Virus record (IMG/VR): IMGVR_UViG_3300036835_000480 | Coordinates: 1,224-65,223 of that record | Strand: one strand, 5' to 3' | Length of the DNA: 64,000 nucleotides | Source: a virus | Lineage: Duplodnaviria; Caudoviricetes | Part shown: piece by piece, positions 10,650-49,748 of the stretch | Layout: each line of letters begins with the position of its first letter | Numbering within the stretch: position 1 is the stretch's first letter | Notes under the pieces: model-generated | Databases searched by the model: none | What the model was told of the DNA's origin: nothing | Seen by the model: the letters and a program-made list of their open reading frames with translations, nothing else | Translations under genes and position numbers: made by a program

Positions 10650-10746
10650 TGGCGTGATTGCGCCAGTTTTGGCTATAATTGGGCACGCCAAATGCCCGCG
10701 TGCCGCTAGGGACGGCCGCGGGCGTAGCACCGAAGGAGATGCTTCG
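10650..10746 (+). promoter_or_regulatory. endonuclease-cassette palindrome/-10 plus leader hairpin
   Basis: TGGCGTgattGCGCCA-8-TATAAT; hairpin 10693-10724. Confidence 0.75.
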
Positions 10747-11817
10747 ATGCCTCGTCAGGCTAGCACACGCCAGCCCCCGGTGACGCTTTCGTGCGCCCAG
10801 TGCGGCACGCCGTTTTGGCGTCACGTCTCGGAGGTCCGCAAGAACCCACCAGGGAGCCCCGCCTACTGCTCGCGGGCTTGCTGGCGCCGCGCCATACACG
10901 CCCAGCCCCAGGTCACCTGTACCTGTGAGCACTGCGGCGTGACATTCCAGCGCTGGGCCGCCATCGTCGAGAGTGGCCGAGGCCGCTTCTGTAGCCGGGC
11001 CTGCACCAACGATGGCCGTGATTCGCGGATTGCGCTGACGTGTGAACAGTGTGGTATTACGGTCTACCGCTGGCCCGCCGAACTGCGCCGCTCCCGCGCA
11101 TCCCAACATACCTACTGCTCGCGGGCCTGCGCTACCGAGGCCAAGCGCTCGTCGCTCCCTCGCATGGCCGTGTATGCCATCGTCCATCTGGCGAGTGGCC
11201 GGCTCTACATCGGGGCCACCACGCACCTCGTGCGCCGCTGGGGCAGCCACCGCTGGAAACTCGGCAACGGGTCGCACGAGAACCCCGTCCTGCAAGCGGC
11301 CTGGACGCGCGAAGGTGCCACCGCATTCGAGTTTCGCGTGTTGGAGACGGTGAGTGATCCAACCCAGTTGCCGGTCCGGGAACAAGCGTGGCTGGACGGC
11401 TCCCATAGTGCCGAGCCGGCACAGGGCTTTAATATCCACCCCCAAGCGGAGAGCCCGCGCGGGCGCAAACAGCGACCCGAGGTCATCGCTCGGATGGCCG
11501 AGCGACAGCGAGGGCGCCCCCACTCGGCCGCGACGCGGGCACGTATATCGGCGAGCGCGATGGGGAACCAGCGCGGCGTCGCGACCTTGAGACGGTATAC
11601 CGCACAGGCCCGTGCCTTGTCGGATACGCAAGTGGCCGCGATTAAACAGGCTCTCGCCGCTGGCGACTACGTCGCCGCCATCGCCAGACGGGCAGGGATC
11701 GCGACGTATGCAGTTGAACATATCGCCAGAGGGGACACCTATCGCCATGTCTTGCCCGAATTGGATGCGGCCCTGCGGCAGCGGGCCGATGGGCGCAAGC
11801 GCCGGCGGGGCTCTTAG
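10747..11817 (+). CDS. free-standing GIY-YIG homing endonuclease with zinc repeats and NUMOD3-like motifs
   Basis: AVYAIVHLASGRLYIGAT...RWGSH...HENPVLQAAW...REQAWLD...GFN; HSAATRARIS. Confidence 0.88.
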   Translation: MPRQASTRQPPVTLSCAQCGTPFWRHVSEVRKNPPGSPAYCSRACWRRAIHAQPQVTCTCEHCGVTFQRWAAIVESGRGRFCSRACTNDGRDSRIALTCEQCGITVYRWPAELRRSRASQHTYCSRACATEAKRSSLPRMAVYAIVHLASGRLYIGATTHLVRRWGSHRWKLGNGSHENPVLQAAWTREGATAFEFRVLETVSDPTQLPVREQAWLDGSHSAEPAQGFNIHPQAESPRGRKQRPEVIARMAERQRGRPHSAATRARISASAMGNQRGVATLRRYTAQARALSDTQVAAIKQALAAGDYVAAIARRAGIATYAVEHIARGDTYRHVLPELDAALRQRADGRKRRRGS

Positions 11818-11828
11818 AGCCAGGCCGT

Positions 11829-12359
11829 TCATGCCTCCACCGCCTCTCCCGCAGGGATAATGTCAATGGAACATTGACAATTTCCTAGTCAGGTTCTAGA
11901 GCCCACTTCGGGCAGAGTCCCCACCGGGACGGGGCCGCGATCGGTTAACTCCTGACATTCATCGCAGCTAGCCGCCGATTCACTCAAGACGTTCTGCTCC
12001 ATCGCATCTTCCGGAGCATCTCTGCGGATCACACCGCTATAGGTACCGCGAACCGCACCGCCGTACATGCTCAATCTTTGCATCGCCTGGGGCCCAAAAT
12101 CGCCTGGCGCCGTATCTAAACCTAGTACACTCAAATACGAGTACTGCTGTCTAAGCCGACTCCCCACAAACCCCCGCGTCGAGGCATCCATCTGGTCCCA
12201 GCCGCCCCTGGCCAGCGCCGCCGACGTGACGTGCGCATTCTTGAGGGTTTGTTGAACCCCGAGCCGCCAGGAAAGCGTGTCGAGCCCCTCCGCGCGCCGC
12301 TGGCCCCAGACGGCGAGCTCGGCTTTTGTGGCCGCTACCAGGTCGTCGAGGTTACTCAC
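11829..12359 (-). CDS. minor capsid/head morphogenesis (MuF-like) protein with an in-frame TGA at 11889-11891
   Basis: CDEC...LPEVGSRT[TGA]LGNCQCSIDII; frame continues 19 codons past the TGA; located after the portal gene. Confidence 0.7.
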
Positions 12360-12592
12360 GCCCCGCCTCCGAACTCGGCGCGCAGCGCCGCGGGGTCGAG
12401 GTCGAGCGCCGCGCAGGTGCGGCCGATGGCCCCCTGCGCGCGGACCAGGAAGGCGCGCTGCTCGGGCGCCAGCTCGGTCGCCACGCTGAGCACCAGCGCG
12501 CAGTAGCTCTGCGTGGCGATCAGCAGCGTCACCAGGTCGTAGACCGTGCTAAGCACGGCCACCGTCTGGGCCTCTTGTTCGAGCTGCCCCAT
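12356..12592 (-). CDS. hypothetical protein
   Basis: GTGA overlap with the minor capsid gene. Confidence 0.6.
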   Translation of the reverse strand: MGQLEQEAQTVAVLSTVYDLVTLLIATQSYCALVLSVATELAPEQRAFLVRAQGAIGRTCAALDLDPAALRAEFGGGA

Positions 12593-13003
12593 AGAACGTG
12601 CGGCAGGGGACTGTCGCCTTCAGGCGACAGAGGAATGCCGTCAGCCCGCAGGCTGAGCGCGTCCTCGTCCCCGCCTCACTCCTTCCGTTTATTGGCGTCG
12701 TTACGCCAAATCTCGTATACTACTAGGAGTCGGCTCTCCCTTGCGGACGGCGCCTCCGGGATGCCTCCAACCGCGTAAACGGTGACCCGACATGACCGGG
12801 GTAGCATGGCGAGCCGTGAGGCTCCCGGCGGGCAATCAGCGTACTGCCGTCCGCCCCGGCCGGGCTGCCCTAGGCCCTCGGGCCTAGCTCTCTCGCTAAG
12901 AGCATCACCCAGCCCAACGTAGGGGAGCGGGTGTCGCGAGTCCGGTGTCACGGGTCGAACGCTCCACTTACAAGCCGTTCGCCTTTAGGCGACGGTCGGT
13001 GAT
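12593..13003 (+). mobile_element. non-autonomous, ORF-less IS200/IS605-type element (411 bp)
   Basis: left hairpin CTGTCGCC-TTCA-GGCGACAG; right end CAAGCCGTTCGCCTTTAGGCGACGGTCGGTGAT; removal restores a TGATG stop/start overlap. Confidence 0.8.
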
Positions 13004-13023
13004 CAGCGCACCTGCCAGTTATC
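12726..13023 (+). ncRNA. candidate TnpB omegaRNA-like structured RNA with flank-derived guide
   Basis: downstream of TATACT (12716-12721); several hairpins (GAGCC-GTGA-GGCTC, CTAGGCC-CTCG-GGCCTAG); ends in the IS605 right-end hairpin. Confidence 0.5.
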
Positions 13024-13194
13024 CAGCCGCGGGTTCGGTCGCGGTGCGGGTACGGGCGGGCGCGCTGCGTTCCAGATGGTCGCGCGCGCGATCGCCTTGT
13101 AGGTCACCGCGTAGCCGTTGCCCGTGCCCCCGGCCTTCCCGCTCAGGCGCCAGGCCCAATCGGGGAGATCCCGCCGCGGCGTGCGGGCGCTCAT
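13003..13194 (-). CDS. hypothetical protein
   Basis: TGATG overlap with the upstream ORF. Confidence 0.55.
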   Translation of the reverse strand: MSARTPRRDLPDWAWRLSGKAGGTGNGYAVTYKAIARATIWNAARPPVPAPRPNPRLDNWQVR

Positions 13195-13403
13195 CAGCAC
13201 TGCCGCTGGTACCGCTGCGCCCACTCCCCCGCGAGCGTCAGCAGTCGCGCGAGATAGGGGCTCGCCAGCCACTCGGTCGGCTCGTCGTTGCCCGCTGCCC
13301 GCCGCGCGGCCCACTCGCGTTCGGTCGCCAGGAGCAAGGCCGACTGGAGCGGCTCCGGGTACCGCTCGATCGGCACGCCCCAAACGGACGCCAGGTCACT
13401 CAC
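13194..13403 (-). CDS. hypothetical protein
   Basis: overlaps the portal stop codon. Confidence 0.55.
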   Translation of the reverse strand: MSDLASVWGVPIERYPEPLQSALLLATEREWAARRAAGNDEPTEWLASPYLARLLTLAGEWAQRYQRQC

Positions 13404-14958
13404 GGTGCCGCCCGTTCGCGTGCCCGTTGCGCCGCGCCTTGCCGCTCCCGGCCAGCGCCGCCTCTAGGTCGGGCAGGCCCAACCCCGCGACCCACTCCTG
13501 GGCGCGGGCGATATCCGCAGCGGTGATCCGCACCGGCGGCGGCTCGGCCTTCACCAGCACCTCCCAGCCGCTCGCGGCCTGGAGCGCCGAGGGCTCTAGC
13601 TCGGGGATCGTGTCGCTCGCGCCCGGCTCGGGCGTGGCGGCCGGCGCCGCGGGCTCCTCCGCGGGCACGGGCTCCGGGGCCGGCGGCGGCTGGAGCTGAT
13701 CGGACGGCAGGGCCACGACGGCGACGGGAACGAACAGCACGTCGCCGTCACTGAGCGCCGGCCGCCCGAGGTCGGCGCGCGCCTCATTCACCGTCAAGAA
13801 TGGGCCGCCCACCGCTTCTTTGAGCCGCGCGTATTTCTGCGTCTCGTCCTCGGCGAAGGCGCGCAGGTCGGAGAGGTCGCGAGCGATGCGGATCGTCGGG
13901 TCGTCGGTGAAGTCGGGCAGGAGCTGCGCCTGCAGCTTGGCGTCGTCCTGCGCCCAGAGCCCGACCAGGGTGGCCTCGGTGAAGTACTCGCGCGCCTGGC
14001 GGGCGTTGGCGTAGGTCGCCGCGTCGAGGCCGGCGCCCAGGCCGGCGATGATCGCGGGCACGCGCAAGACGGCGCTGATCCTTTCCTCTGGCACAGAATG
14101 GATGTCACGCAGGAGCATCTGCTCGGGCGAGAAGCCGACCTGGGCCATCGTGGCGTCGCCGCCGATCACGCCGACCCGCCCGCGGCGCTCCTCGCTGTAG
14201 AGCCACTGCGCCGTCTCGGCGAGCTGGCGCGCCTGCTGCTCGGTCAGCGCGTTCTTAGTCGTGATCATCATCCCCGGCAGGGCGTAGTTGCCGAGCAGGG
14301 TATCCGTCCAGCGCGCGGCCCGCTCGTCGGTGGTCACGGCGCGGACCAGGCGCGCCAGCGGCGAGAGGCCGCGGCGGGGGTCGCGGTCGTCGAGGCCGAG
14401 GCGGAAGTGGATCACGTCGCGCGGGTCGAGGTCCTCGAACTGGCCCGAGGCGTAGAACCAGCGGTAGTAGCTGATGAAGTCATTGCCGGTGCTGAAAATC
14501 TGGACCCGCGTCGGGCTCATCGGCCAGAGGCGCACGACCGCGCCGCGCTTCGACGTGCGCTCCTTGCGGACGAAAGCATTGCCGTCAAGGTGGTAGGCCC
14601 AGGTCGCCCAGCCCCATAGCTCCAGCGCGGTGATAAACGGGTTGGGGTTGTCGAGCAGGAGCTGGCAGGGATGGTCGGGCAGCCATGCGCGCTCCTCGTC
14701 GGCGTCGATCTGCCACACCTTGAGCGGCGGCTCGCAGTAGGAGGTGCCGAGCGCGGCCAGGCAGGCGAAGACGGCGCTATTGCCGTCGCCATAGGCCACC
14801 GCGCCGGCGGCCGGCACCGCGGCGGCGCTGCCGCCGTAGGGCGCGAGCCCGTCGGGGTAGACGGGCAGCAGGTCGAGCGCCGCCTTCTGCGCGGGCGCGG
14901 GCGCCGCGGCGCGGGCCAGGAGCGGCGGGCCGAAGCGCAGCCAGTTAGGCACGGGCAC
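13396..14958 (-). CDS. portal protein, HK97 family
   Basis: NSAVFAC, LLDNPNPF, LDGNAF, VIHFR...GLSPL, ATYANA, LTVNEARADLG. Confidence 0.95.
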   Translation of the reverse strand: MPVPNWLRFGPPLLARAAAPAPAQKAALDLLPVYPDGLAPYGGSAAAVPAAGAVAYGDGNSAVFACLAALGTSYCEPPLKVWQIDADEERAWLPDHPCQLLLDNPNPFITALELWGWATWAYHLDGNAFVRKERTSKRGAVVRLWPMSPTRVQIFSTGNDFISYYRWFYASGQFEDLDPRDVIHFRLGLDDRDPRRGLSPLARLVRAVTTDERAARWTDTLLGNYALPGMMITTKNALTEQQARQLAETAQWLYSEERRGRVGVIGGDATMAQVGFSPEQMLLRDIHSVPEERISAVLRVPAIIAGLGAGLDAATYANARQAREYFTEATLVGLWAQDDAKLQAQLLPDFTDDPTIRIARDLSDLRAFAEDETQKYARLKEAVGGPFLTVNEARADLGRPALSDGDVLFVPVAVVALPSDQLQPPPAPEPVPAEEPAAPAATPEPGASDTIPELEPSALQAASGWEVLVKAEPPPVRITAADIARAQEWVAGLGLPDLEAALAGSGKARRNGHANGRHRE

Positions 14959-15133
14959 GACGAGCCTCCTTCCACTCCCAGAGGTCGAGCTGACGGGCGA
15001 TCAGCAGCGGGCCACGCCCGCGGCGCGGCCGCTCGATCTGGTAGACCACGCCGCACTGCGGGCAGCGAATCTCGATGCCGGCCGGCGAGATGCGCGGCAG
15101 GGCGAAGGCGGTGCGGCACTCCCAGCAGGTCAA
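14945..15133 (-). CDS. Com-like zinc-ribbon protein, copy 3
   Basis: TCWECRTAF...IEIRCPQCG; TTG start after GGAG. Confidence 0.55.
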   Translation of the reverse strand: MTCWECRTAFALPRISPAGIEIRCPQCGVVYQIERPRRGRGPLLIARQLDLWEWKEARRARA

Positions 15134-15172
15134 CGAGTTTTCTCCGTATCCGCTGTCTGGTCCCAAAACCCC

Positions 15173-15201
15173 TTGTATTTATCATCAGATAGGTGTACTA
15201 T
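15173..15201 (+). promoter_or_regulatory. conserved cassette promoter P3
   Basis: TTGTAT-17-TACTAT, spacer TTATCATCAGATAGGTG. Confidence 0.8.
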
Positions 15202-15239
15202 AAGAGTAGGATAGGAACGCAGCACGAAGGAGACGCCCG

Positions 15240-15758
15240 ATGACCGAGACCATGACCGCCGCCCAGTCCGTCGCGATCTTCAACGACCTGATCGCCAGGC
15301 AGGCCGCCCGCGTGCGGGGCTACGGCGAGAGCATCGCCACCATCGCCGCCGACCTCGACCCCGCCAGCATCGAGCAACTCGAAACGCTCCAGATGATGAA
15401 GGACGGCCTGGGCCGCGAGCTGGGCCGCCTGAACGACCTGATGCGCGACGCCGCGGCCCGCCGCGCGGAGGCCGCCCGCGAAGCCGCCGCGGCGAAGGCG
15501 CCGCTGGATCTCCAGCGCGCGGCGCTCGACCTGGCCAGCAAGCTGCACGCCGTCCGCGGCGAGCGGCACGACGGGATCCTGCTCTGGAACCGCGCGCTGC
15601 GCGCCAGCCTGAAGAAGGCCATCGACGGGCTGGTCAGCAAGGACCTGCGCCAGATGCGCGAGGCCGTTCAGATCACCCGCGGCTGCCTCTACGCCACGAG
15701 TATGGACCACCAGCCGCTCCGCGAGCAGGCGAACGCCCTGGCCGAGCGGCTGGGCTAG
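15240..15758 (+). CDS. coiled-coil hypothetical protein
   Basis: AAGGAG RBS, strong GC3 codon bias. Confidence 0.75.
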   Translation: MTETMTAAQSVAIFNDLIARQAARVRGYGESIATIAADLDPASIEQLETLQMMKDGLGRELGRLNDLMRDAAARRAEAAREAAAAKAPLDLQRAALDLASKLHAVRGERHDGILLWNRALRASLKKAIDGLVSKDLRQMREAVQITRGCLYATSMDHQPLREQANALAERLG

Positions 15759-15770
15759 CAGGAGAGAACG

Positions 15771-16094
15771 ATGGACACCCCGATCATCATGCACGGTCCC
15801 GGTATCACCGTCGAGGACCACGGCGCGATCCGCCTGGTCCGCACCCTTACCGAGACGCTCCTGGCGCGTACCGACCGCCCGAATGGCCGCGCCTTCCGCG
15901 TGGCCCGCCGCGGCGACGACGACGCCTGGTGGATCTGGGAGCACCACCCCACCGAGGCCCAGCGCTGGGCACGCGGTCGGGCGCACGCGGGCTGTAACCA
16001 GGAGCGCTGCCGCCTCGGCCCGCTGGGCGGGCACCAGGAGCGCGAGCGCACCGAGTTCTGGGCGCGCTACCTGCTCAGCGACCAGGCCCGCTAG
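15771..16094 (+). CDS. hypothetical protein
   Basis: AGGAG RBS. Confidence 0.65.
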   Translation: MDTPIIMHGPGITVEDHGAIRLVRTLTETLLARTDRPNGRAFRVARRGDDDAWWIWEHHPTEAQRWARGRAHAGCNQERCRLGPLGGHQERERTEFWARYLLSDQAR

Positions 16095-16099
16095 ATAAT

Positions 16100-16128
16100 T
16101 TGCAACTATCGCTGTACTACTGTACAAT
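16100..16128 (+). promoter_or_regulatory. conserved cassette promoter P4
   Basis: TTGCAA-17-TACAAT, spacer CTATCGCTGTACTACTG. Confidence 0.8.
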
Positions 16129-16169
16129 GTGATTAGGTCAGGTATAGCGACGCGAAGGGAGTACATCAA

Positions 16170-17252: not shown

Positions 17253-17343
17253 CCCGCGCGCGATGCAGCGGGGCGGCGCGGCCACGCGCCGCCCTCGCGC
17301 TGTCTGTCCGCCCGTCGCCCCCAGCGCCCGCACGGCGGTCTCC

Positions 17344-25744: not shown

Positions 25745-26482
25745 CTATTCGAGATGACGCCAGGACCTGCGGTGCTCGATCGCCCGTATCCCTTGCGGCG
25801 TGAGTCCATAGCGCCTCCCGAGTACTACCGATGACACCCCGGCGGCGCGTGCCGCACGTATGGCGCGCACGTCCGCTGCGGTGAGCTTCGCCCGACGGTT
25901 GTCCTCGCCGTAACGGCTGAGCGTCCGTCGAGTCGGGCCGCCCGCCTCCGCCCAGATATGCCCGCGCACGAGCGCCGTCAGCGTGCTATCGCTCAAGCCA
26001 AAGGCATGGCCCAGAGCGGCGAGCGACTCGCCTGCAGCATGGCGCTCGCGAATTGTCGCTGCCTGCTCCGCCGTGATCTTGGCGGCCGTATTGCGCTCAC
26101 CCAGCGGCAGCCTGCCATGTCGCCGCTTGTCGCCCTCGTTCTCTTCCCAGGTCGCCCAGCGCAGATTCCCCAGGTGGTTGTTCGTAGGATCGCCGTCGTA
26201 GTGCGCGACGACATGGCGCGGCGATGGACGCGATCCCAGGAACGCCTTAGCGACCTCGACATGGACCGCGTGCTGGGTCCGAACGTTATTGGCACTAAGG
26301 GTAACGAGCGGATAGCCGGCAGGAGCGGGGGTTTGCTTCAGCACGAGGCGGCGCGCGAAAGTCGTCTTGCCGTTGCGGAAGCGGATCGACGCAATCTGCC
26401 CGTCGGTAGAGACCTCGTAGAGCCCCTCGAAACCAACGACGGGGCGCCACTCGACGGAGGGCGTAGTACACTGGGGATACAT
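25745..26482 (-). CDS. free-standing NUMOD4-HNH homing endonuclease
   Basis: EWRPVVGFEGLYEVSTDG, VHVEVAKAF, HYDGDPTNNHLGNLRWAT..EN; two GE.N..AKLT HTH repeats. Confidence 0.9.
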   Translation of the reverse strand: MYPQCTTPSVEWRPVVGFEGLYEVSTDGQIASIRFRNGKTTFARRLVLKQTPAPAGYPLVTLSANNVRTQHAVHVEVAKAFLGSRPSPRHVVAHYDGDPTNNHLGNLRWATWEENEGDKRRHGRLPLGERNTAAKITAEQAATIRERHAAGESLAALGHAFGLSDSTLTALVRGHIWAEAGGPTRRTLSRYGEDNRRAKLTAADVRAIRAARAAGVSSVVLGRRYGLTPQGIRAIEHRRSWRHLE

Positions 26483-26585
26483 GGGAGTCAACTCCTTCCA
26501 TGTCGGCCCCCGGGGTGTTGGTAGCACCGCCGGGGGTACTCTATGCGGTTGCCTAAAGTATAGCGTTTCTGGCGTCATTACGCCG
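26483..26585 (-). promoter_or_regulatory. endonuclease-cassette palindrome/-10 plus leader hairpin
   Basis: CGGCGTaatgACGCCA-7-TATACT; hairpin 26507-26536. Confidence 0.75.
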
Positions 26586-26874: not shown

Positions 26875-27446
26875 CCGAGAGCCTCCAGTAACGCGACCAG
26901 TTGCTCTGCGGTAAGGCGACGACGGAGGTAGGCCGCAAGAGTCACCATGTCGTCGAGCGGGACGGTCGCGGTCGGACGGCGGAAGCCTGCCTCGATCATG
27001 GCCGCGTGCGGGGAGCATTCGCCGGCGAGGACGCGGGCATGCAGATCAGGACGGTCGGATCGGAGCTTACGAAGGGCGTGCTGCGCTGTATTGCCATCTG
27101 GCCGCACAACTTCGTTTACATTGTAAACAAGGTCAGTGCGCTCACCTTGCCGCCCCATCGTTGCCTGATCAATCAGATCCAACACATCCAGGTAATCCCG
27201 ACACCAGCGCTTGAGTGAGCCGATATCCGTTCCTAGCCCCTCGGGCGGTCCACTCTGCACGAAACGGACGAACTCATCGAAGCGCACCACCTCACGCGTG
27301 CGTCGCACCTCGCGCTCGATCCAGCACTGCTCGATGATCACCCGCCGCAGCAGATCAGGGATCGCCTCCAGCCGTTGTCCACCATGAGCGACAGCCTCCT
27401 GGAGCGCCATCACGACGGAGTCATTAGCAGCGAGCGTATTCAGCAC
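26871..27446 (-). CDS. conserved-looking hypothetical phage protein
   Basis: PPEGLG, QGERTDL, LRKLRSDRPDLHARVLAGE.SPHAAM.EAGFR. Confidence 0.7.
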   Translation of the reverse strand: MLNTLAANDSVVMALQEAVAHGGQRLEAIPDLLRRVIIEQCWIEREVRRTREVVRFDEFVRFVQSGPPEGLGTDIGSLKRWCRDYLDVLDLIDQATMGRQGERTDLVYNVNEVVRPDGNTAQHALRKLRSDRPDLHARVLAGECSPHAAMIEAGFRRPTATVPLDDMVTLAAYLRRRLTAEQLVALLEALG

Positions 27447-29403
27447 GCGCCGCCTCCAGCCACCCCTCGTAGTCGGTCGGCGCCCAGGGATCTTGCGTGC
27501 GCGCCAGTAGCTCCTTCATCAGGCGCTCGCGAGCCTCGATCTGGGCCAGCGTGATCCGGTTACCCTGGAGCCAGGCGCCATCAAGACTAGCCTGGAGTCT
27601 ATAGACCTGAGCATGCGTCAGCCCTGTTGTCGCTACGAAACGGCTCGTAAGTCGACTCAGCGGCTGCTTCGCCTTGCGTAGCGCATCCTCGGGCGCGACT
27701 GCCGCAGATCCGGACGTAGGCAGCGATATCGCGGATACCGCGCCCCCATCGAGCTGAGCATTTAGCCGCAGGCAACGAGCGAGGAATGGAGCCGAGACGC
27801 TTGCAGTACCGGCGAGCCCGAGAATCAGCTCAGCGCGGGCAATCTCCTGCCGCGTATAGAGATCATGATCAAAAAAGACATCATCAGCTTCTGCGGTGGC
27901 ACCGATCGTCACCGCTAGATTGCTCTGCCGCGGCTTATCTGGATCGAGCGTAGCCGTGCAAGTGTGCTCCTGCTGCTCGGCCTCGTCGAGGGCGTGCTCG
28001 CGCTGCTCCTTGATCCGCTGCACGTACGCGACGAGCAGCGGTTCTCGCGGGATAAACCACCAGCCAGCCTCACCGTCGAGTAGCTCACCGCTTTCGGCGA
28101 TCAGCCGTACTAGGCGACCGACAGCCTGGCGGAAATACATCTCGGTCAAGACGTTGGTGGCGTAGACGCCAACGAACAGCCGGGGAATATCGATCCCCTC
28201 GCTGACCATCCGCACCGCGACGATCCAGCGTTCTTGCCCCTGGCGGAAAGCCTCGATCACGTCTCCCGCGTTGGGATCATCAGAGAGCGCGACGGACGGA
28301 TGCTCACCAGTAATCTCGTGTAGTAGGTCTGCAACACTACGAGCGTGGACCTGATCCATCGCAATCACGAGTCCCGCCGCTCGCGAGTAGACGGATTCAC
28401 GCACGTCGCGCAGTCGTGCATCCGCATCGCGGAGGACCGTCGGCAGCCAATCGGCCTGGGTTGAGAGGGCCGTCCGCAATCGCTGCATGCTCTCTTGCTC
28501 GTCCAACTCATCACGGAAGGTCGCTTCGCGCTGCCCATCTCGCGCTGAAAACCATTTCATCTGGCCTTCGTAGCTCGGGAAGTAAACCGGGCGCACAACC
28601 CCATCGCGCAGCGCGTCGCCATAGGTGTAAGTAAAGTGTGCTCGGCACTTCCCGTCGATGTAGCGCACGAACGGGATCGGATGATTATCGCTACGGAAGG
28701 GTGTCCCGGTAATCAGCAACCGCTGCTGAGCGTGCTCGAACGCATGTTGAAGCGCATCGCCCCATAGTAGTGAGTCGCCCATATGATGCGGCTCGTCGAA
28801 GATTACGAGCGTTGCGCGGCGGCACTGCCGGCGAAATACATCAGGGTTCGAGGCAACCTGGGCATAAGTCACCACTACGCCGTGAAACTGAGCATGCTCG
28901 TGATCATGCTCGTTCAGGAATTGGTGGCTCAGGCTGATCCCAACGGCAGCCCCCGCCTTTGCCCATTGACGGCGCAAGGCCGTAGTGGGGACGACGATGA
29001 CTACGCGCACCACTCGGCCGGTATAGAGGGCATCGTGGGCACAATACAATCCGAACCGAGTCTTACCCGCTCCGGGCGTGCCGTCGATCAGTACATCAGA
29101 GTCTAGCGAGCGCTGATACTCCTGAAATGCTTCGAGCGCCCATCGTCGGAGCAGTAGTCCCTCAGGCCAAGGCGTCTGAAGCGTCCCCAAGTCTCTTTCC
29201 CCCTTTACGTGATTGCACCGTGGACAGAGAGCCTGCCCGTTCCAGACATCCGTAGCGCCGCCTCGGGAATAGGCAGTAACGTGATCAGCGTGCCAATCAG
29301 GCGGGAGCGGCGCACCACAGCGTTCGCAATAGCCATCACTCTCGACGAGTAGTGCCCAGCGCTGGCGTCCTGAGAATCGCCGCGCCTGGCGCCGACGCAC
29401 CAT
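27424..29403 (-). CDS. HNH nuclease fused to a superfamily-2 (DExH) helicase
   Basis: CERCG..WHADH..GG.T...NGQALC..CN..K; TPGAGKT, IFDEPHH, TGTPFRSD, MVSEGIDIP, QAVGRLVR. Confidence 0.88.
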   Translation of the reverse strand: MVRRRQARRFSGRQRWALLVESDGYCERCGAPLPPDWHADHVTAYSRGGATDVWNGQALCPRCNHVKGERDLGTLQTPWPEGLLLRRWALEAFQEYQRSLDSDVLIDGTPGAGKTRFGLYCAHDALYTGRVVRVVIVVPTTALRRQWAKAGAAVGISLSHQFLNEHDHEHAQFHGVVVTYAQVASNPDVFRRQCRRATLVIFDEPHHMGDSLLWGDALQHAFEHAQQRLLITGTPFRSDNHPIPFVRYIDGKCRAHFTYTYGDALRDGVVRPVYFPSYEGQMKWFSARDGQREATFRDELDEQESMQRLRTALSTQADWLPTVLRDADARLRDVRESVYSRAAGLVIAMDQVHARSVADLLHEITGEHPSVALSDDPNAGDVIEAFRQGQERWIVAVRMVSEGIDIPRLFVGVYATNVLTEMYFRQAVGRLVRLIAESGELLDGEAGWWFIPREPLLVAYVQRIKEQREHALDEAEQQEHTCTATLDPDKPRQSNLAVTIGATAEADDVFFDHDLYTRQEIARAELILGLAGTASVSAPFLARCLRLNAQLDGGAVSAISLPTSGSAAVAPEDALRKAKQPLSRLTSRFVATTGLTHAQVYRLQASLDGAWLQGNRITLAQIEARERLMKELLARTQDPWAPTDYEGWLEAARAEYARC

Positions 29404-29410
29404 CGCCCAC

Positions 29411-29629
29411 CTACGCCTCCCTCCCCGCGCGGCGCTGGGCGGGGCGTGTAGCAGCGGCCCGGCGCTTGACCGCGAGCGCCTCCACGTCGCCGCGGCGGAT
29501 GAGGTGGCCGAGGCCCGTCGGGGTCGCGGGTAATTCCCCACGGCGGATCAGGTTGAGCACGGTCTGCGCGGAGCAACCGAGCACATGCCCCGCCTCGGTG
29601 GCGCCCAGCAGATCGTCAGCCGTCGTCAT
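29411..29629 (-). CDS. excisionase-like HTH DNA-binding protein
   Basis: LLGATEAGHVLGCSAQTV..LIRRGELPA. Confidence 0.8.
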   Translation of the reverse strand: MTTADDLLGATEAGHVLGCSAQTVLNLIRRGELPATPTGLGHLIRRGDVEALAVKRRAAATRPAQRRAGREA

Positions 29630-41952: not shown

Positions 41953-41973
41953 CGCGGTCTCCCGCGCCCGCGC

Positions 41974-42386: not shown

Positions 42387-42419
42387 GAGTGTAGAACGAG
42401 AGCACGAAGGAGGCCTACT

Positions 42420-42737: not shown

Positions 42738-42739
42738 GA

Positions 42740-43279
42740 ATGTCCCGCGCAATGCTGCTCATTGGCCTGATCATACTGGGCCTCGGCACCTTCGTCTGGG
42801 CCGCCACGCGCGGCGCACCACCGCCGCCCGTAGATACGCTCGCCGGCCTGACCGCGGCGGAGAAGGCCGCCGCCTACCAGGCGCAGCTCGACGCGATGCG
42901 GCCCACGCCCGAGCTACAGCCGACCGAGGCGCCCTGGACCGAGCGCGCGATCCACGGCGCGCCGCCCGCCGAGCGTACGCCAGTCGCCGTCGCCATGTGT
43001 GGCCCGGAGGCCCTCCAGGCAGCGCGCGCCTACCGTGCGCCGGGCGCGAGCGCTCCGATCGACCAGACCGTGATCCACAATCTTCAGCGCGGGCATAAGC
43101 CGCTGGGCGCCGTGCGGGACTGGAAGATCGCCGAGCGCTCGCGGGATACCTGCAGCATCGGGCTCCATGTGGTCTACGGCAACGAGCTGCTGATGCTCTC
43201 CTGGGTCTGGCGCCCGGCGACGGGCACGCTGCAGGTGAGCGGGCCGGATTGGGAGACGAAATACTACTCCGGCTGGTAA
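42740..43279 (+). CDS. membrane-anchored hypothetical protein
   Basis: N-terminal TM helix MLLIGLIILGLGTFVWAA. Confidence 0.65.
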   Translation: MSRAMLLIGLIILGLGTFVWAATRGAPPPPVDTLAGLTAAEKAAAYQAQLDAMRPTPELQPTEAPWTERAIHGAPPAERTPVAVAMCGPEALQAARAYRAPGASAPIDQTVIHNLQRGHKPLGAVRDWKIAERSRDTCSIGLHVVYGNELLMLSWVWRPATGTLQVSGPDWETKYYSGW

Positions 43280-43286
43280 TCCCCGC

Positions 43287-43315
43287 TGGTTGTTAGCATC
43301 GGGCTACTGTACAAT
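43287..43315 (+). promoter_or_regulatory. conserved cassette promoter P7 (degenerate -35)
   Basis: spacer TTAGCATCGGGCTACTG then TACAAT. Confidence 0.65.
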
Positions 43316-43345
43316 GAGAACAGAGACGCGCAAGGAGGAGCCCTG

Positions 43346-45440
43346 ATGCCTGAGCCGCCCACGCATCTCACCGTCGCCATCCGCCGGCTACCCTGGCCGA
43401 CGTTCCATCTGGTGCTCGCCAGCGGCGGGCCGGCCGACGGCAGCCTCTACGGCTTCACGACGCTCTGCGGTCGCCCGATCCGCGATCTTGATGGCTGGCA
43501 GGAGCGCCCGAATCAGCCTGGTACCTGCCGCGTCTGCTGCCGCGCGCTCGCCGCGGCCGACGCTCGACTCAAAGGAGGCATCGCCCATGCCTGAGACCTG
43601 CGTCCACTGCCACGCGCGCCCCGTGCAGCTCCACTACGGCGCCCCGATCTGCTATCTCTGCTACTGCAACGCCACGGGCTACGGCCCCGAGGAGCTGGCC
43701 GAGCAGCTCGCCACCAGCGAGGCCGACTACACCGCCCGCCTCACCGCGCTCCGCGCCGAGCTGGTCCCGCTCCTGCTCGCCGAGCCGAACGGTCGGGCCT
43801 ACTGGCGCGACAAGGGTTACGCATGGGCGCAGGAGGCGACCGATGACTGACTCCGACGAGATTCGCGTCGAGTCGCTCTACGGCGCGCGCACCGACGCGC
43901 CGCTGGTGAAGCTGATCGCTGGCCCGCACGAATGGATCATGCCTCCTGCCAAGGCACAAGCCATCGCCGGTATGCTGTTGGAAGCGGCTGAGGCCAGCAT
44001 TTCGGACGCTTTCCTGGTGCGCTGGATCATGAAAACGGTCGGCGCTCCGCGTGAGGCAACGGCCCCGGTCCTACGCGAGTTCCGCCAGTTCCGCGAGTTG
44101 TCCCGCCGCCAGGGCCGCGAGCAGGAAGAAGCCGATCAGGCGGAGTGGGAGGCGCGCGATGAATAAGCCGGGCTGGCAGTGTCCCCTATGCGGGCGCGTC
44201 TCCTACCATCCCGAGGATGCGGCCAATCGCTACTGCTCGTGCTGTGGTGGGCCGTACTTGCCGAAGCAGTGTCCGCACCAGCACGAGGCCAGGTGGGAGG
44301 AGCGCGATGATCAGTGACCTGGCAACGACGGAGGGGCAGAGATGACGCCGGAGCAATTACAGGATTTGCAGGCGGACTGTGTCGAACTGCGCGACCACGG
44401 GTGCGACCCCGGCGGGTTCGCGCCGCGCTGTCTGGAGTTGCTCGCCGCGTACGATGCCCAGACCACCCAGCTCGCCACCGCCGAGCAGGCGCGGGACGAT
44501 GCGCTGGAGCGGATAGCGACGCTCGAAGCAGTCATGAAGAGTGACGCCACCATGAACCGCATCCAGGCCGACAGTGCTCAGTTGCGGCGTGTCAATCTGG
44601 ACCTCGTACAGCGGGTGCACCGCCTGGCCGCCCTGGCGCAGGCCGCGCGGGACTACCTGGACCGCAACAAGTTTCACGATGCGGCGATTGAGGCGGCCGT
44701 CGCGGCGCTCGACGCGGCACCCGCGGCCGATGAGAGCGGTCAGCTTGCGTAAAGGAGCTAGAGGAAAGGGTAAATAGGATTGGACCACCCCGGGAGGCGC
44801 ACAATGCATGACCTCGGCCGCCACCCGCTCCTAGATGCGCTGTGGGAGAGTCTCCCGCCGGCCGGCAGCCCGTGGCCGCTCGCGGAGCAGGAGGCGTGGC
44901 TGGCGGTCGCCCGCGCGGTGCTGCCGCTGGTGTATCCGAGTGGGGAGCCGGCCTGATGGTCTACCAGCTCGACCTGACGCGCGATGCCACCTGTTATATC
45001 TGCGACAAGGCGATGTACGCCGGCGACCCGTGCTACGCCACCGGCCGCGGCGGGAGTCGCCGCCTCTACTGCTCGTCCTGGTGCGCCGACCCGCGGCCCT
45101 GTACCGGCTGCCGGCACCCCCAGCGGTATCACGCGGCGTGGGGCTGCTTCGCGCCGGTGGTCGATCGGTACGGGAACGAGGGCGCCTGTTCATGTCGCAT
45201 AGGACGAGTGGACTAACAATGAGCGAATCCGAGCCACTCGCCCGCGGCGACGTGATCCAGCTCGACCCCGCCCACGACACGACGTTTGGGGGCTGCCTGT
45301 TCATCGTCACCGCGGTCAAGACGTGGGGCGTGCAGGCCGTCTGCATCATGCCGCACACGGAGGGCCCCCGGCAGGCGTACTACCGCGCGCCGTGGGGCCG
45401 CTTCGCGCGCGTGGGCGCCGCGCCCTGGCCGCTGGAGTAG
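43346..45440 (+). CDS. operon of short hypothetical genes (43346-43594, 43587-43850, 43843-44166, 44159-44317, 44342-44752, 44956-45216, 45219-45440)
   Basis: overlapping starts/stops, GGAGG-type RBSs, several CxxC motifs. Confidence 0.6.
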
Positions 45441-45960
45441 GAGGCCCGCCGTGACGCGCCGCCTGACCGCCGCGCAGACGACCTGGCGCGCCGCCCGCCG
45501 CGCCTGGGGCGGCTTACTCTGCTACTACCTCCGCGCCTACCTGGCGCGCCGGGAGGCCGCCTGCCCGAGCGCCCCCGCTCCTACCACCCGGGCAACCACC
45601 GCCCTCGGCCTACGCGCCGACGCCCCAGCCGAGGAGCACCCCCAGGAGCGCGACGAGCAGCAGCGCCAGCGCGACCAGGACGGCGCGGAGCAGTAGCGCG
45701 CGCGGCGTCACCCCAGCCCCCTCCCCCCGTTGCCCCTGCGCGGCGTTCTCGGCCGTCGGGGGTGCTAACTACCTACGCGAACCCCGGACCGCCCCTACGG
45801 CCGTCCTGGTGCGAATACGGGCCTACCGGTGGCCCCGCCGCGGGGCACGGGCGCTCCTAGCTCGGCGCCAGCCAGAGCAGCAGGTTCACCAGCGCCAGGA
45901 CCGCGCCCAGCAGCGCCATGTCGCTCCAGGTCCAGTGCTCGGTCATGCGCGACTGCTTTC

Positions 45961-46058
45961 TGGCGTCGTTACGCCAATTCTGCTAGAATTGTAGACCGCA
46001 AAAGGCCGGGCGCTGTTAGAGCAGCCCCGACCGTGACGCCGAGCGCTGGAGACGCCCG
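45961..46058 (+). promoter_or_regulatory. endonuclease-cassette palindrome/-10 plus leader hairpin
   Basis: TGGCGTcgttACGCCA-7-TAGAAT; hairpin 46004-46032. Confidence 0.78.
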
Positions 46059-46763
46059 ATGCCTCATCAGTCTACCAAGCTCCTCCGAGCCTGTGAATAC
46101 TGCGGTAGTTCGTTTTCTATCTACCCCGCCTGGCTTAGACTTGGTGCAGGCCGGCATTGTTCCAACGTATGCGCGGGCCGGTCACGCCGACGCTCATTAG
46201 CCGATCGCCTCTGGGCGCGCGTGGTGAAGACTCCCACTTGCTGGCTCGTAAGCGGCCATCTGCTGCCTAGCGGGTATGCGCGAGTTATGCGTGGCGATGG
46301 CGATCGGACTAGTATCAGCGCACATCGGGCAGCCTGGATGCTCGCCAGCGGAGCCACGATCCCGCCTGGATACTCGGTGCTCCATACTTGTGACAATCGC
46401 GCCTGCGTCCGCAATGATGAGCCCGGTATCTATATCATCCACGGCGTTGAATATCAGCGGTGGGGGCACCTGTTTCTCGGGACCCAGCAACAGAATATCC
46501 ACGATATGTATTCCAAAGGACGCGGCTACAGTCGGACCGAGTGGCATCGGGAGAGCGCCAGGGCGCATCTCGCCGAGGTGCGTAACCGCGCTCGTGGAGA
46601 AGCACATCATCGGGCTCGGCTGACGGAAGCACAAGTCTTAGCCATCAGGGCCGAGTATCTACCCTTCAAGATGACTGCTCGCATGCTTGCCGCTCGCTAC
46701 GGGGTCAGCATCCCAACTATCAGGTTTATCCTACGGCGACGTATCTGGCAGCATCTGCCCTAA
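46059..46763 (+). CDS. free-standing HNH homing endonuclease
   Basis: CWL...GY...AHRAAW...VLHTCDNRACV...HLFLGT.QQN..DM..KGR; GE.H.RARLT HTH. Confidence 0.9.
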   Translation: MPHQSTKLLRACEYCGSSFSIYPAWLRLGAGRHCSNVCAGRSRRRSLADRLWARVVKTPTCWLVSGHLLPSGYARVMRGDGDRTSISAHRAAWMLASGATIPPGYSVLHTCDNRACVRNDEPGIYIIHGVEYQRWGHLFLGTQQQNIHDMYSKGRGYSRTEWHRESARAHLAEVRNRARGEAHHRARLTEAQVLAIRAEYLPFKMTARMLAARYGVSIPTIRFILRRRIWQHLP

Positions 46764-47431
46764 TGCCCAACACCGCGCACGGTATTGATAACCGCCTGTC
46801 CCGACTGTGCTGCTGCCCCAAATCCTTCTTGATCCGTAGCAAGGTGCGTATTCACCATGCTATCCAGCGCGCTCTGCATCGCGTCCATGCAATCGCCCTG
46901 GATATACCCCAACTGGTTGATCAGGGCTTCGACTTCGGCGCTGCTCACATCGTCCTCCTCGTAGGGCATGACAACCATCGAGAATGGACCCAGGCCCTCG
47001 AACTGGGCGCGGCTCATCGCCTGTCCGACGCCCTTCCAGCCAGGCGCACTATTCGCCAGCGCCAGCGTGCCGTCCGCATTGATTCCGCGGCAGCCGCACC
47101 AGTGGTACCAGCCGCGGCCCCCGAGCAGGACCGGATACGTCCCGGCTAGCGCCAGCACGTTCTCCCACGTCGCATAGGCGATATTCGCCGCGGGTACCGC
47201 GTAGTGCTCCTGGATGTACTGCACGAGCCCAGCGCCCGAGGCGTCGAGCAGCCCGACCGCCGGGTCTACCGGCCACGGCGACATGTCCGCCACCAGGGCA
47301 GCTTTATCCACCTCGTAGCCCAGACTCGTGAGCCCCCACCAGGTCGAACAGATCGAGCACGTCCAGTCGGTCATCTGGAGATGCACCGGCGCGCTCGCAT
47401 CGTACGGCTCGGGCGCGATCCCGTCACTCAT
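46760..47431 (-). CDS. putative endolysin, C39-like cysteine peptidase
   Basis: Q..DWTCS (Cys), WYHW (His), LANSAPG (Asn); follows tail genes and a holin-like gene. Confidence 0.7.
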   Translation of the reverse strand: MSDGIAPEPYDASAPVHLQMTDWTCSICSTWWGLTSLGYEVDKAALVADMSPWPVDPAVGLLDASGAGLVQYIQEHYAVPAANIAYATWENVLALAGTYPVLLGGRGWYHWCGCRGINADGTLALANSAPGWKGVGQAMSRAQFEGLGPFSMVVMPYEEDDVSSAEVEALINQLGYIQGDCMDAMQSALDSMVNTHLATDQEGFGAAAQSGQAVINTVRGVGH

Positions 47432-47435
47432 CCCC

Positions 47436-47636
47436 TTACGCCTCGCGCTCCCGGCCCAGCGCTTCGCGCATCGTCGCGCGATACTGCGCCGCTTCCTCCG
47501 TCAGGCGCTCGATCTGGGCGCTCATCATCTTGCTGTAGGCGAACCAGAGCGCGCTGATCGCTCCCGCCAGCGCGACGAGCAGCGCGGTGATCACAGTGAT
47601 CTCCCCGCCCGAGAAGCAGACCGGCCCGCTCTCCAC
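47436..47636 (-). CDS. putative holin-like TM protein
   Basis: one TM helix plus charged coiled-coil, directly upstream of the endolysin. Confidence 0.55.
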   Translation of the reverse strand: MESGPVCFSGGEITVITALLVALAGAISALWFAYSKMMSAQIERLTEEAAQYRATMREALGREREA

Positions 47637-47684
47637 CGCCCCCTCCCTACGCCGCGCCCCGCGCGCCGCGCATCGCCGCCCGCC

Positions 47685-47978
47685 TTAATTCGGCGCCCCG
47701 GCGTAGGCGTTGAACAGGCTGATGACGACGAACTCCAGGTCGTTGTCCGGGCTGTCCGCCGTGATTACCGGGTTCGTGGCCACCCCCAGCGCCATATTCA
47801 TGCCGTGGACCTCCGGCTGGAGTAGGCACTGGTTGGCGTACGCCGTGCGCTCGTCGTGGTGCAGCGTCGTGCGGTCCTCGGCCATTACGTCGATAGACAC
47901 TTTCGTTAGCGCCATCGTCACTCGCTGCTGAAAGACCGGATCGTTCGCCAGCGCGTAGCCCTCCTGAAAGCTGCTCAT
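47685..47978 (-). CDS. hypothetical tail-module protein
   Basis: ATGA overlap, 97 aa. Confidence 0.65.
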   Translation of the reverse strand: MSSFQEGYALANDPVFQQRVTMALTKVSIDVMAEDRTTLHHDERTAYANQCLLQPEVHGMNMALGVATNPVITADSPDNDLEFVVISLFNAYAGAPN

Positions 47979-48271
47979 GGCGGACTCGCAATCTGGCGCT
48001 CTTGCGCGAGCGCCGCCTTCGCCGCTAACCGCTCGTCGAGCGTCGGCGTGGGTGGTCTCGTCGGGTCGTGCGCCGCGACGACGGCATCGACCTCAGCCAC
48101 CGGCGTCGCCTCCGGCCAGGTGATCTGTACGAACGTCGCGTCCCCCTCGACGCTATAGTGCGCCGTCCGCTCCCCGGCCGCGTTCGTCGTCGTCCACGCC
48201 GGGAATGCCGCGGCTAGCTCCTCCGTGAGCTTGGGTAGGCGCACTGGCGTGTCATAGCGTTTCGTCGTCAT
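47975..48271 (-). CDS. hypothetical tail-module protein (possible fibre chaperone)
   Basis: LTEEL...VVAAHDP; follows the fibre gene. Confidence 0.6.
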   Translation of the reverse strand: MTTKRYDTPVRLPKLTEELAAAFPAWTTTNAAGERTAHYSVEGDATFVQITWPEATPVAEVDAVVAAHDPTRPPTPTLDERLAAKAALAQERQIASPP

Positions 48272-49644
48272 TGGCTGCTCAGTCGCACACAGGCAAAGTA
48301 CGACTCTGCCGCACCGACGGTGATCGCGCCGCCGCTGTTTTGATAGAAATCGACGTTGACCCAGGCCCCCACGTTCAGGCGCGCCAGTCCCACGATGCCC
48401 ATCCGCGGGTAGGCCGACGCTGACGGCGCCACCGCATTGCCCCCAATGACGAGCCCGCTATCCGTCACGAACCGCCCCAGGCGGGTGCCCACCGCGCTGA
48501 GATTGTTGATCTGGAGCAGCGCCGTAAACAGATACAGCCCCCCGAGTCCGGTCGGGATCGTAATCCGATCATTGTTCGTCGCATTGTCATGGAACGCATC
48601 CGTATCGCTAAACTCCGTATTCCAGGTAATCGGCGTAAAGACCGAATCGTTCACGCTCTGATCGCCGCCGCTCTTCGCCACGATCGCGTAGGGGCTGCGC
48701 GGCAGATCGCCGAGCGCGATCGCCGCCAGCGCGTGCGCGTGGTCGCGCCGCGCGGCGACGCCCGCGCTCCCGACGGCGCCCGCGCCGCCGTAGGCCAGCG
48801 CCGGCGGCAGCGTGGCGTCGAAGAGCGGCAGCGTGGCATCCGATCGCAGCAGCGTCGGCGCACTGCCGGGCGCCGCGGCGGTGCCGAAGACGAGCGCCGG
48901 CGTGGCGAACGCCTCGCGCCCGTGTTTATGGTCGCTCCGCGCTACCGTCGTCGCGCTACCCGCCGCGGCGGCATCCCCGACCGCGCTGGTGCCGGGCGTC
49001 CCGAAGGCTTCGCGCCCGTGCTTATGATCGGCGCGCGCCAGCGTCGTCGCGGTGCCGTCCGCCGCCGCATCGCCGACCGCACTGCTCCCCGGGCTGCCGT
49101 AGCCCGGCATGGGGTTCGCCGGCATCCCGTGCTTGTGATCCGAGCGCGCATCCGTCGTCGCCGTCCCTGCCGCCGGACTATCCCCGAACGCCGCGGTGCC
49201 GGGCGTGCCATAGCCTTCCCGCCCGTGGACGTGGTCGCTGCGCGCCAGCGTCCCCGCCGTCCCGGCGCTCGCGCTATCCCCGACCGCGGAGTTACCGGGC
49301 GTCCCAAACGCCTCGCGCCCGTGCCGGTGGTCGCTGCGCGCGAGGCTCGCTGCCGCCCCCGCCGCGGCGCTGTCCCCCGGTGCGGAGCCGCCGGGCGTGC
49401 CGAACGCCTCCCGCCCGTGCGTGTGCTGGCGCCGCGCCGCGAACCCGTCCGCCGCGCCGGCCGCCGCCGCATCACCGGGCGCCGAGGTCGAGGGCAGCGT
49501 CGTGTCGTCGAAGGCCACGCCTGGATCGCCCGGGGGGCCCTGTGGGCCGGTAGGGCCGGGGGCGCCGGGGCTTCCCGCCGGGCCCGTGGCCCCATCTGCC
49601 CCAGGCGGACCCGCGATGTTACCCGTAAGCGTCCAGACCATCAA
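48268..49644 (-). CDS. tail fibre protein with collagen start, DHxH repeats and C1q-like tip
   Basis: ARSDHxHGREAFGTPG repeats; ITWNTEFSDTDAFH...RITIPTG.GGLY. Confidence 0.8.
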   Translation of the reverse strand: MMVWTLTGNIAGPPGADGATGPAGSPGAPGPTGPQGPPGDPGVAFDDTTLPSTSAPGDAAAAGAADGFAARRQHTHGREAFGTPGGSAPGDSAAAGAAASLARSDHRHGREAFGTPGNSAVGDSASAGTAGTLARSDHVHGREGYGTPGTAAFGDSPAAGTATTDARSDHKHGMPANPMPGYGSPGSSAVGDAAADGTATTLARADHKHGREAFGTPGTSAVGDAAAAGSATTVARSDHKHGREAFATPALVFGTAAAPGSAPTLLRSDATLPLFDATLPPALAYGGAGAVGSAGVAARRDHAHALAAIALGDLPRSPYAIVAKSGGDQSVNDSVFTPITWNTEFSDTDAFHDNATNNDRITIPTGLGGLYLFTALLQINNLSAVGTRLGRFVTDSGLVIGGNAVAPSASAYPRMGIVGLARLNVGAWVNVDFYQNSGGAITVGAAESYFACVRLSSQ

Positions 49645-49648
49645 AAAC

Positions 49649-49748
49649 TCCCGTCTGGACGCCGAATTCGGGTATACTGTAAATACCTGAATAGCCCCGC
49701 GGCGCTAGAGACGCCCGGGGCCGCGGCACCCCAACGTTGGAGGTTAGG
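49649..49748 (+). promoter_or_regulatory. endonuclease-cassette (partial) palindrome/-10 plus leader hairpin
   Basis: TCCCGTctggACGCCG-8-TATACT; hairpin 49694-49721. Confidence 0.68.

Follow-up and report, generated by a model that had tools for sequence, protein, structure and literature searches.

A conserved two-hairpin fold, predicted to be an antisense RNA, at the 5′ ends of homing endonuclease genes in uncultured phages

What does a bulged hairpin do when it recurs, each time in a different sequence, ahead of four endonuclease genes of one phage, and in which strand does it act? The question is raised by a 64,000-nt stretch of DNA, referred to here as the window, which comprises bases 1224–65223 of the 65,223-bp virus record IMGVR_UViG_3300036835_000480 and has a GC content of 69.8%. 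An earlier note on this DNA had described the four hairpins, each followed by a weaker stem around the Shine–Dalgarno (SD) sequence, and had proposed a cis-regulatory RNA in the mRNA leader that limits translation of a toxic nuclease. All four hairpins were read from the window sequence where the note had placed them and with the form it described (Table 1). The hairpin, termed SL1, is built of a lower stem of 6–9 bp, a single bulged pyrimidine on the 5′ side, an upper stem of 4 bp that a G-C pair closes, and a loop of 6–7 nt. In every copy it lies 11–20 nt past a −10 box and 21–27 nt before the nuclease ATG. The lower stem of copy 3 contains a C·A mismatch, which the note did not mention and which is a G·U pair on the opposite strand. 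The claim of different endonuclease genes also held, as all four encode a nuclease domain, one GIY-YIG and three HNH_3, and the weaker stem around the SD is real and covaries across relatives.

The four nuclease proteins resemble one another at domain level only (~30%), and the stretch from the promoter to codon 7 has a mean column identity of 68%. GC content at third codon positions (GC3) is 0.62–0.76 in the nuclease genes, below that of the frames passing a filter of GC3 ≥0.80, which fits mobile genes. Copy 2 shares the orientation of the genes around it, and copies 1, 3 and 4 stand on the strand opposite to their neighbours. The element has no Rfam family: the whole window gave no match at gathering score (Rfam 15), and 10600–13400 and 45900–49900, searched on both strands, gave none at E ≤ 1 to any family, HEARO/OMEGA-type HNH-associated RNAs included.

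Homologues of the HNH protein encoded at 46059 were found in metagenomes, and with DNA from IMG/VR and metagenome contigs the family came to 37 distinct full cassettes, the window copies included. The layout common to these relatives is a −10 box, the bulged hairpin, the motif '(G)ACACC', the SD and a start region reading ATG CCn nnn nAn nnT ACC. A covariance model whose 33 seed copies all came from other phage contigs and none from the window (R3, filters off) matched exactly the four sites in the window, at 37.8–58.9 bits (E 5 × 10−11 to 2 × 10−6, rough values, as the calibration was short). The fifth-best match in the window scored 15.1 bits (E 0.14; 128 kb, both strands).

The covariation with pairing kept that the earlier note had seen in four copies proved strong across the family. 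In a model-fitted alignment of the sense strand (A8), the hairpin pairs formed in 93.0% of cells, compared with 67.7% in shuffles and 38–49% in slid controls, and 10 of 11 pairs showed double-sided changes. A plain MAFFT alignment of the antisense strand, fitted to no model (A9; 37 rows, 19 pairs), was scored against a two-hairpin structure written by hand. Here 92.6% of 689 cells paired, compared with 74.6% in shuffles, none of 500 of which reached this value, and 41.8–47.8% in slid controls. Fifteen pairs had changes on both sides, and compensatory cells numbered 120 compared with 34.8 in shuffles. Three further structural features were considered and set aside. Pairing of the loop with codons 4–6 as a pseudoknot was dropped after inspection by eye gave no consistent complement. 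A YUNR U-turn is not claimed, as many 7-nt loops start with CUNR and the 6-nt loops do not; nor is an outer CACG/CGUG helix around SL1, which occurs in some copies only.

The same alignments distinguish the two strands. An A·C opposition on one strand is a G·U pair on the opposite strand. When both stems are counted, 93 cells paired solely as antisense G·U (A·C in the sense strand), and 12 paired solely in the sense strand; with the start-codon columns removed, the counts were 25 and 6. In SL1 itself, the non-Watson–Crick cells on the sense strand comprised 24 A·C (16 without the terminal pair) and three G·U. The stem flanking the SD was paired in 93.6% of cells on the antisense strand, compared with 72.9% on the sense strand. 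Opposite the A of the AUG stands C in 29/37 copies and U in 8/37, so that the antisense strand always pairs at this position and the sense A seldom does. Between the end of the hairpin and ATG+1, the antisense fold was the more stable in 35 of 37 copies, by a mean of 5.0 kcal/mol (shuffles, +0.4), and the mean z against shuffles was −3.1 for the antisense and −0.6 for the sense strand. A stable sense structure that buries the SD, of the T-even type, was not found in the 37 copies, as the latter z-score and the extent of sense pairing indicate. The conservation of 'ACACC' past the hairpin is explained by its place in this fold: it forms the 3′ arm of a stem, and the complement of (C)GAUG(C) forms the 5′ arm. 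These data make a functional fold of the antisense strand very probable.

The first codons of the nuclease genes hold a conserved promoter-like element on that strand. Counted from the A of the ATG, A11 (33/37), T15 (35/37) and A16 (32/37) correspond to an antisense TAnnnT, and C18 (30/37) and A19 (26/37) to its TG extension. With C17 (26/37), codons 4–7 read in antisense as T-G-G-T-A-n-n-n-T, an extended −10. The spacing is conserved as well: C4 (35/37), opposite the first base after the ATG, is an antisense G seven bases past the box, the usual +1. Position 15 is the third base of codon 5, for which 13 different NNT codons are used, encoding Ser, Tyr, Cys, Phe, Arg, His, Gly, Asp, Pro, Leu, Val or Ala, in phage DNA of 52–69% GC. 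Since third positions in this DNA are mostly G or C, the constraint lies on the nucleotide and not on the protein. A consensus promoter scan returned the antisense site of copy 3 (46097–46069) as one of two promoter-like sites in 6.5 kb. The sense promoters share the TGG-TAnnnT form, with TGG before the box in 15/37 by our own count. A promoter within the 5′ end of the target gene and on the opposite strand, as for IS10 RNA-OUT and SymR, is thus present as judged from sequence.

From this +1 to just past SL1, the predicted antisense RNA measures 61–77 nt in all 37 copies, each of which folds as two hairpins and a tail. A 5′ stem-loop of 8–11 bp begins at nucleotide 1 or 2 and is separated from the reverse complement of SL1 by a linker of 0–4 nt. 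In 20/37 copies the loop columns contain an anti-SD-like motif (CUCC, CCUC, UCCU or CCCC), which in other copies straddles the 3′ arm. In cassette 1, for example, the predicted order is a 5′ stem-loop over the complement of the AUG and SD, the SL1 reverse complement and a U-rich tail. The fold is stable, conserved and complementary to both the SD and the start codon, a complementarity that follows from its position. The 8 nt before SL1 are 50% A (147/296), which gives the antisense strand its U-rich tail. The 8 nt after SL1 are 11% T, indicating that SL1 is not a terminator of the sense strand.

We propose, with moderate confidence, that a discrete cis-antisense small RNA (sRNA) gene lies within the 5′ end of these homing endonuclease genes and represses their translation. 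A portable control cassette of ~110 bp would head each gene, with two promoters face to face. The sense promoter, whose −10 often reads TGGTAnAAT, would start the nuclease mRNA a few bases before SL1, and the antisense extended −10 (TGGTAnnnT) would start an RNA opposite the first base after the ATG. This RNA would consist of a 5′ stem-loop with the anti-SD (CUCC) in or beside its loop, followed by the SL1 reverse complement, which together with the U-rich tail would probably serve as a terminator and end the RNA there. Over the start codon, the SD and the entire 5′ untranslated region (UTR) of the nuclease mRNA, this RNA would be perfectly complementary to its target; it should thereby keep ribosomes from binding, lay the duplex open to degradation, or do both. 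Transcriptional interference from the converging promoters could contribute. Copy 2 runs in the same direction as its neighbours, so that no gene lies to its left for such a promoter to serve, yet every antisense feature is retained in it, which suggests that the RNA serves the cassette itself.

The earlier proposal of a cis-regulatory leader RNA was therefore upheld in one part and revised in another. The element is conserved, covarying, without an Rfam family and tied to endonucleases of different families, and limiting nuclease expression is most likely its purpose. The placement in the mRNA leader fits poorly with the G·U bias, the folding energies, the antisense −10 and the U-rich tail. 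The bias, the energies of the SD stem, the −10 and the A-rich tract before SL1 together make SL1 likelier to be the 3′ stem, a terminator, of an antisense sRNA. SL1 can form at the 5′ end of the mRNA too, where it would be the target of the antisense RNA.

Three soil metatranscriptomes (X7–X9) contain small shares of the window as short contigs identical to the phage. Two X7 contigs, 45829–46055 and 46027–46305, are 100% identical to the window and share 29 nt, without being joined, in the interval from SL1 to the ATG of cassette 3. The former stops 7 nt short of the position (46062) at which the antisense RNA is predicted to begin. This pair hints weakly that two transcripts end within the cassette. 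Depth, uncovered parts and the many X6 joints whose sides measure 20–24 nt were left out of the evidence.

Several points weigh against the antisense sRNA. SL1 pairs nearly as often on the sense strand (88.1%) as on the antisense strand (91.7%), which leaves room for a role in the mRNA. The A9 structure was derived from the same rows on which it was scored, and these rows are related, which leads the shuffle controls to exaggerate significance. Some members of the family were gathered with model R1, whose inclusion of the start region may inflate the conservation of the antisense −10 among the copies that it found. A terminator scan (≥5 T in 8) called no hairpin; the GC-rich stem is present, and the tails are rich in U, though interrupted. 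Because a hairpin-less promoter class of the same phage is likewise followed by A-rich starts, the U-rich tail is weak evidence. Contig 45829–46055 runs 166 nt past the predicted terminator, so that termination at SL1 would be partial at best. The RNA contigs carry no strand, and DNA carry-over could account for them.

That same contig, which passes SL1 and crosses a 29-aa open reading frame (ORF) at 45857–45946 (−), is what would be expected if the antisense promoter faced outward to re-drive the phage gene to the left of an inserted nuclease, with the hairpins as its 5′ UTR and repression of the nuclease as a by-product. At least 12 of the 37 copies, window copies 1 and 4 among them, have a long high-GC3 ORF upstream on the opposite strand that starts within ~100 nt, a lower bound from a crude orientation test, as spurious ORFs are common in high-GC DNA. 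Co-oriented copies nevertheless keep the box and both hairpins (window copy 2 and, by the crude test, L012 and L039). A strong GC-rich hairpin with a U-rich tail would moreover lower expression of the gene being driven, and a 5′ stem placed exactly at +1, with a loop that carries the anti-SD, fits a regulator. We regard this explanation as unlikely, though it is the strongest of the alternatives.

Less probable still is the model of the earlier note, in which SL1, as a 5′ stabiliser or protein site, and the SD stem (SL2), as a partial mask of the ribosome binding site (RBS), act in the mRNA only and the antisense features are incidental. SL1 does lie 4–8 nt past the expected sense start and pairs on the sense strand in most cells. 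RBS-masking hairpins, moreover, control I-TevI/II/III, segB and Aeh1 mobE, and a stable hairpin lies just upstream of the seg43(25) RBS (PMC2988022). However, the sense SL2 is no more stable than its shuffles and is the less well paired of the two strands, the G·U-only cells are overwhelmingly antisense, and the TAnnnT box with its TG in codons 4–7, together with the third-position T of codon 5, is left unexplained.

A role in the DNA itself, as a cruciform or single-strand hairpin used in homing, recombination or cassette shuffling, is very improbable. Portability of the cassette and, by our own reading of the listed sequences, a GACAC(C)GAAG-like direct repeat around SL1 in many copies would suit it, but the one-strand preference for G·U over A·C is an RNA signature, and promoter boxes, SD and AUG are placed precisely relative to the stems. 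Chance hairpins in a 70% GC genome, in which GC-rich inverted repeats are common and a simple hairpin scan matched unrelated sites too, are refuted by the strong covariation and by the distance between the four R3 scores and everything else in the window.

The cassette is repeated within several other phage records. Model R1 found three copies in G001, eight in G002, five in G003, six matches in G004 (three at E < 10−7) and three in G005; model R2 found four in G007, one in G009 and none in G006 or G008. In the window's own 65,223-bp genome, R2 found exactly the four copies. Among 16 ORFs that follow copies found by model only, seven matched HNH_3 above the cut-off and three just below it; one had a weak LAGLIDADG_1 match, one a weak Phage_rep_O match, and four no family. 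A sub-cut-off Defensin_2 match in one of these last four was taken as spurious. Two cassettes of G002 (L048:1501–1588 and L050:1501–1588) are identical over 88 nt and head HNH genes whose proteins diverge after ~10 residues, showing that the cassette is portable; their identity points to a recent cassette transfer or gene conversion.

In many cassettes (for example L015:2938–3027) a direct repeat surrounds SL1, with (G)ACACGAAG upstream and GACACCGAAGG downstream, and the hairpin looks as if it had been inserted into a standard CACGAAGGAGG leader. Among five GenBank loci of HNH homologues tested with R1, an SL1-like hairpin was found only in the uncultured siphovirus MW202476 (18.8 bits); no such hairpin turned up in the Mycobacterium, Gordonia, Pseudomonas or Caulobacter phage loci. 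The MW202476 hairpin (Manatee Spring; L058:508–540) is a canonical bulged hairpin of SL1 type with the loop CGCUAA, past a TGCTAAAT box, and the annotated 'endonuclease' behind it has a GTG start codon. The cassette family seems to extend beyond soil phages. Two R1 matches in the window, at 7409–7493 (17.7 bits) and 10172–10197, lie within coding sequence with no promoter and were rejected as spurious. Among cultured phages, a blastn search with one cassette gave a sole match, in Ralstonia phage RS-PII-1, which is an unrelated intergenic hairpin.

More tentatively, the two-hairpin RNA can be pictured as a 'safety catch' that is portable among the free-standing homing endonucleases of many uncultured phage lineages. 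The variable SL1 would then be a copy-specific address, and the shared SD stem would permit cross-talk. Nuclease output would thereby depend on how many phage genome copies are present or on co-infection, much as under multicopy inhibition, and the cassette would move between unrelated nuclease families.

Cis-antisense control of this kind has precedents. RNA-OUT of IS10/Tn10 is a ~69-nt cis-antisense RNA, transcribed from pOUT, that is complementary to the translation initiation region and blocks the ribosome, a control that grows with copy number (PMC5006887). As proposed for the cassette, the target is a DNA-cutting enzyme of a mobile element, and a promoter in the 5′ end of the gene faces outward and converges with the gene promoter (PMC5006887). 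The systems differ in that IS10 controls a transposase, whereas the cassette would control a phage homing endonuclease; the predicted cassette RNA folds into two stem-loops and spans the entire 5′ UTR, compared with 35 nt for RNA-OUT, and the two have no sequence or Rfam relation. SymR, a 77-nt RNA, likewise has its promoter embedded in a coding sequence, that of symE, and a silent −10 mutation was the decisive test of it (PMC1891008). In contrast to the cassette, SymE is a chromosomal, SOS-induced toxin of E. coli, present in single copy, with no portable cassette and no sequence relation. The art200/tnpA pair of IS200 shares with the proposed cassette a cis-encoded sRNA opposite the 5′ UTR and an mRNA structure that also limits translation of the mobile-element enzyme, but belongs to a transposon, has ~90 nt of complementarity, involves Hfq and is unrelated in sequence (PMC4513863).

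Homing endonuclease genes of T-even phages are also restrained by RNA structure at their 5′ ends, through RBS-masking hairpins in the sense transcript and an internal terminator in mobE, whose hairpin is a weak terminator with a short U tract; autorepression by I-TevI is a further control (PMC2988022, PMC2790892). The RNA structures work within the sense transcript, and their effect hinges on whether a long or a short transcript is made (PMC2988022, PMC2790892). In the cassette, by contrast, sense pairing around the SD is weak, and it is the antisense fold that is conserved. The open-access literature searched gave no description of a repeated cassette of this kind. Millard and colleagues are said to have described, in 2010, an antisense RNA in cyanophage S-PM2 that links psbA with the homing endonuclease F-CphI. 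Reportedly, this is one long antisense RNA across a gene junction in one phage, with no repeated two-hairpin cassette over the SD and AUG. How free-standing homing endonucleases stay harmless to their own phage was largely unknown when a 2009 paper so described the controls of those of T4 (PMC2790892). If the proposal is correct, a large group of soil phages would have a general solution in a conserved and portable antisense cassette that HNH, GIY-YIG and possibly other nuclease genes carry. A new RNA family would be added as well, and annotators would gain a marker of the true start and promoter of such nuclease genes.

Table 1. Positions of the hairpins, nuclease genes, predicted antisense RNAs and promoter elements of the four cassettes in the window
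Feature	Coordinates	Strand	Basis
SL1, copy 1	10692/10693–10725	gene on +	site 10693 of the earlier note
SL1, copy 2	26536–26507	gene on −	window sequence
SL1, copy 3	46004–46032	gene on +	window sequence
SL1, copy 4	49694–49721	gene on +	window sequence
GIY-YIG + NUMOD3 endonuclease gene, 356 aa	10747–11817	+	domain search
HNH_3 + NUMOD4 endonuclease gene, 245 aa	25745–26482	−	domain search
HNH_3 endonuclease gene, 234 aa	46059–46763	+	domain search
HNH_3 endonuclease gene, 197 aa	49749–50342	+	domain search
Predicted antisense RNA, cassette 1	10685–10750	−	R3, 58.9 bits, E 4.9 × 10−11; fold
Predicted antisense RNA, cassette 2	26479–26545	+	R3, 37.8 bits, E 1.7 × 10−6; fold
Predicted antisense RNA, cassette 3	45995–46062	−	R3, 48.9 bits, E 6.9 × 10−9; fold
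Predicted antisense RNA, cassette 4	49684–49752	−	R3, 53.7 bits, E 6.4 × 10−10; fold
Antisense extended −10 TGC-TAGCCT, codons 4–7 of the GIY-YIG gene (copy 1)	10757–10765	−	sequence; family-wide conservation
Antisense −10 TACACT, codons 4–6 of the HNH gene (copy 2)	26467–26472	+	sequence; family conservation
Antisense promoter TTCACA-17 nt-TAGACT with TG extension, codons 4–13 of the HNH gene (copy 3)	46069–46097	−	consensus scan
Antisense extended −10 TGG-TAGACT, codons 4–7 (copy 4)	49759–49767	−	sequence; family conservation
Sense −10 TATAAT, copy 1; palindrome TGGCGTGATTGCGCCA upstream at 10650–10665	10674–10679	+	sequence
Sense −10 TATACT, copy 2; palindrome GGCGTCATTACGCC at 26571–26584	26557–26562	−	sequence
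Sense −10 TAGAAT, copy 3; palindrome TGGCGTCGTTACGCCA at 45961–45976	45984–45989	+	sequence
Sense −10 TATACT, copy 4; degenerate palindrome at 49650–49663	49673–49678	+	sequence

A palindrome, TGGCGT-N4-ACGCCA, precedes the sense −10 at a constant distance in the four nuclease genes, in degenerate form in copy 4, and in one element without an ORF. Taken by itself, the palindrome GGCGTNNNNACGCC is no rarer than expected by chance (12 matches, 9.4 expected), so that only its fixed place stands out. It was not seen among the foreign cassettes listed and may be a phage-specific operator. The fifth palindrome and −10 (TTGGCGTCGTTACGCCA...TATACT, 12690–12721; palindrome at 12693–12708) begin an element at 12690–13190 (+), in which the promoter is followed by ~470 nt with no ORF and many GC-rich inverted repeats. 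This element gave no Rfam match at E ≤ 1 and no match to R1–R3, and may be a non-coding RNA or a mini-element. The hairpin-less promoter class, TTGCAnnTATTAT...CTACTGTACAAT, occurs at 16123, 39685, 42381 and 43310 (+) and at 6781 (−). It is sigma-70-like with a TG extension and is followed by a purine-rich leader and an SD; these are probably early promoters of the phage.

Genes for a portal protein, large terminase, major head protein, head protease and tape-measure protein lie in the window and together indicate a siphovirus-like phage. No tRNA genes were found in the window. Megablast of window 9000–13000 returned no close relative among GenBank phages, a query of IMG/VR with the portal protein and a profile search of genome contigs with the HNH alignment returned no relative, and the tape-measure protein had distant matches only (<30% identity). 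Five soil DNA runs contain the whole stretch, and a sixth contains 0.68 of its words. Directly to the left of cassette 3 lie two small hydrophobic ORFs on the minus strand, the 29-aa ORF at 45857–45946, which X7 contig 45829–46055 covers wholly, and a 33-aa ORF at 45610–45711. A 705-aa ORF at 27427–29541 (−) combines an N-terminal HNH/endonuclease VII-like domain with a DNA helicase domain (PHROGs).

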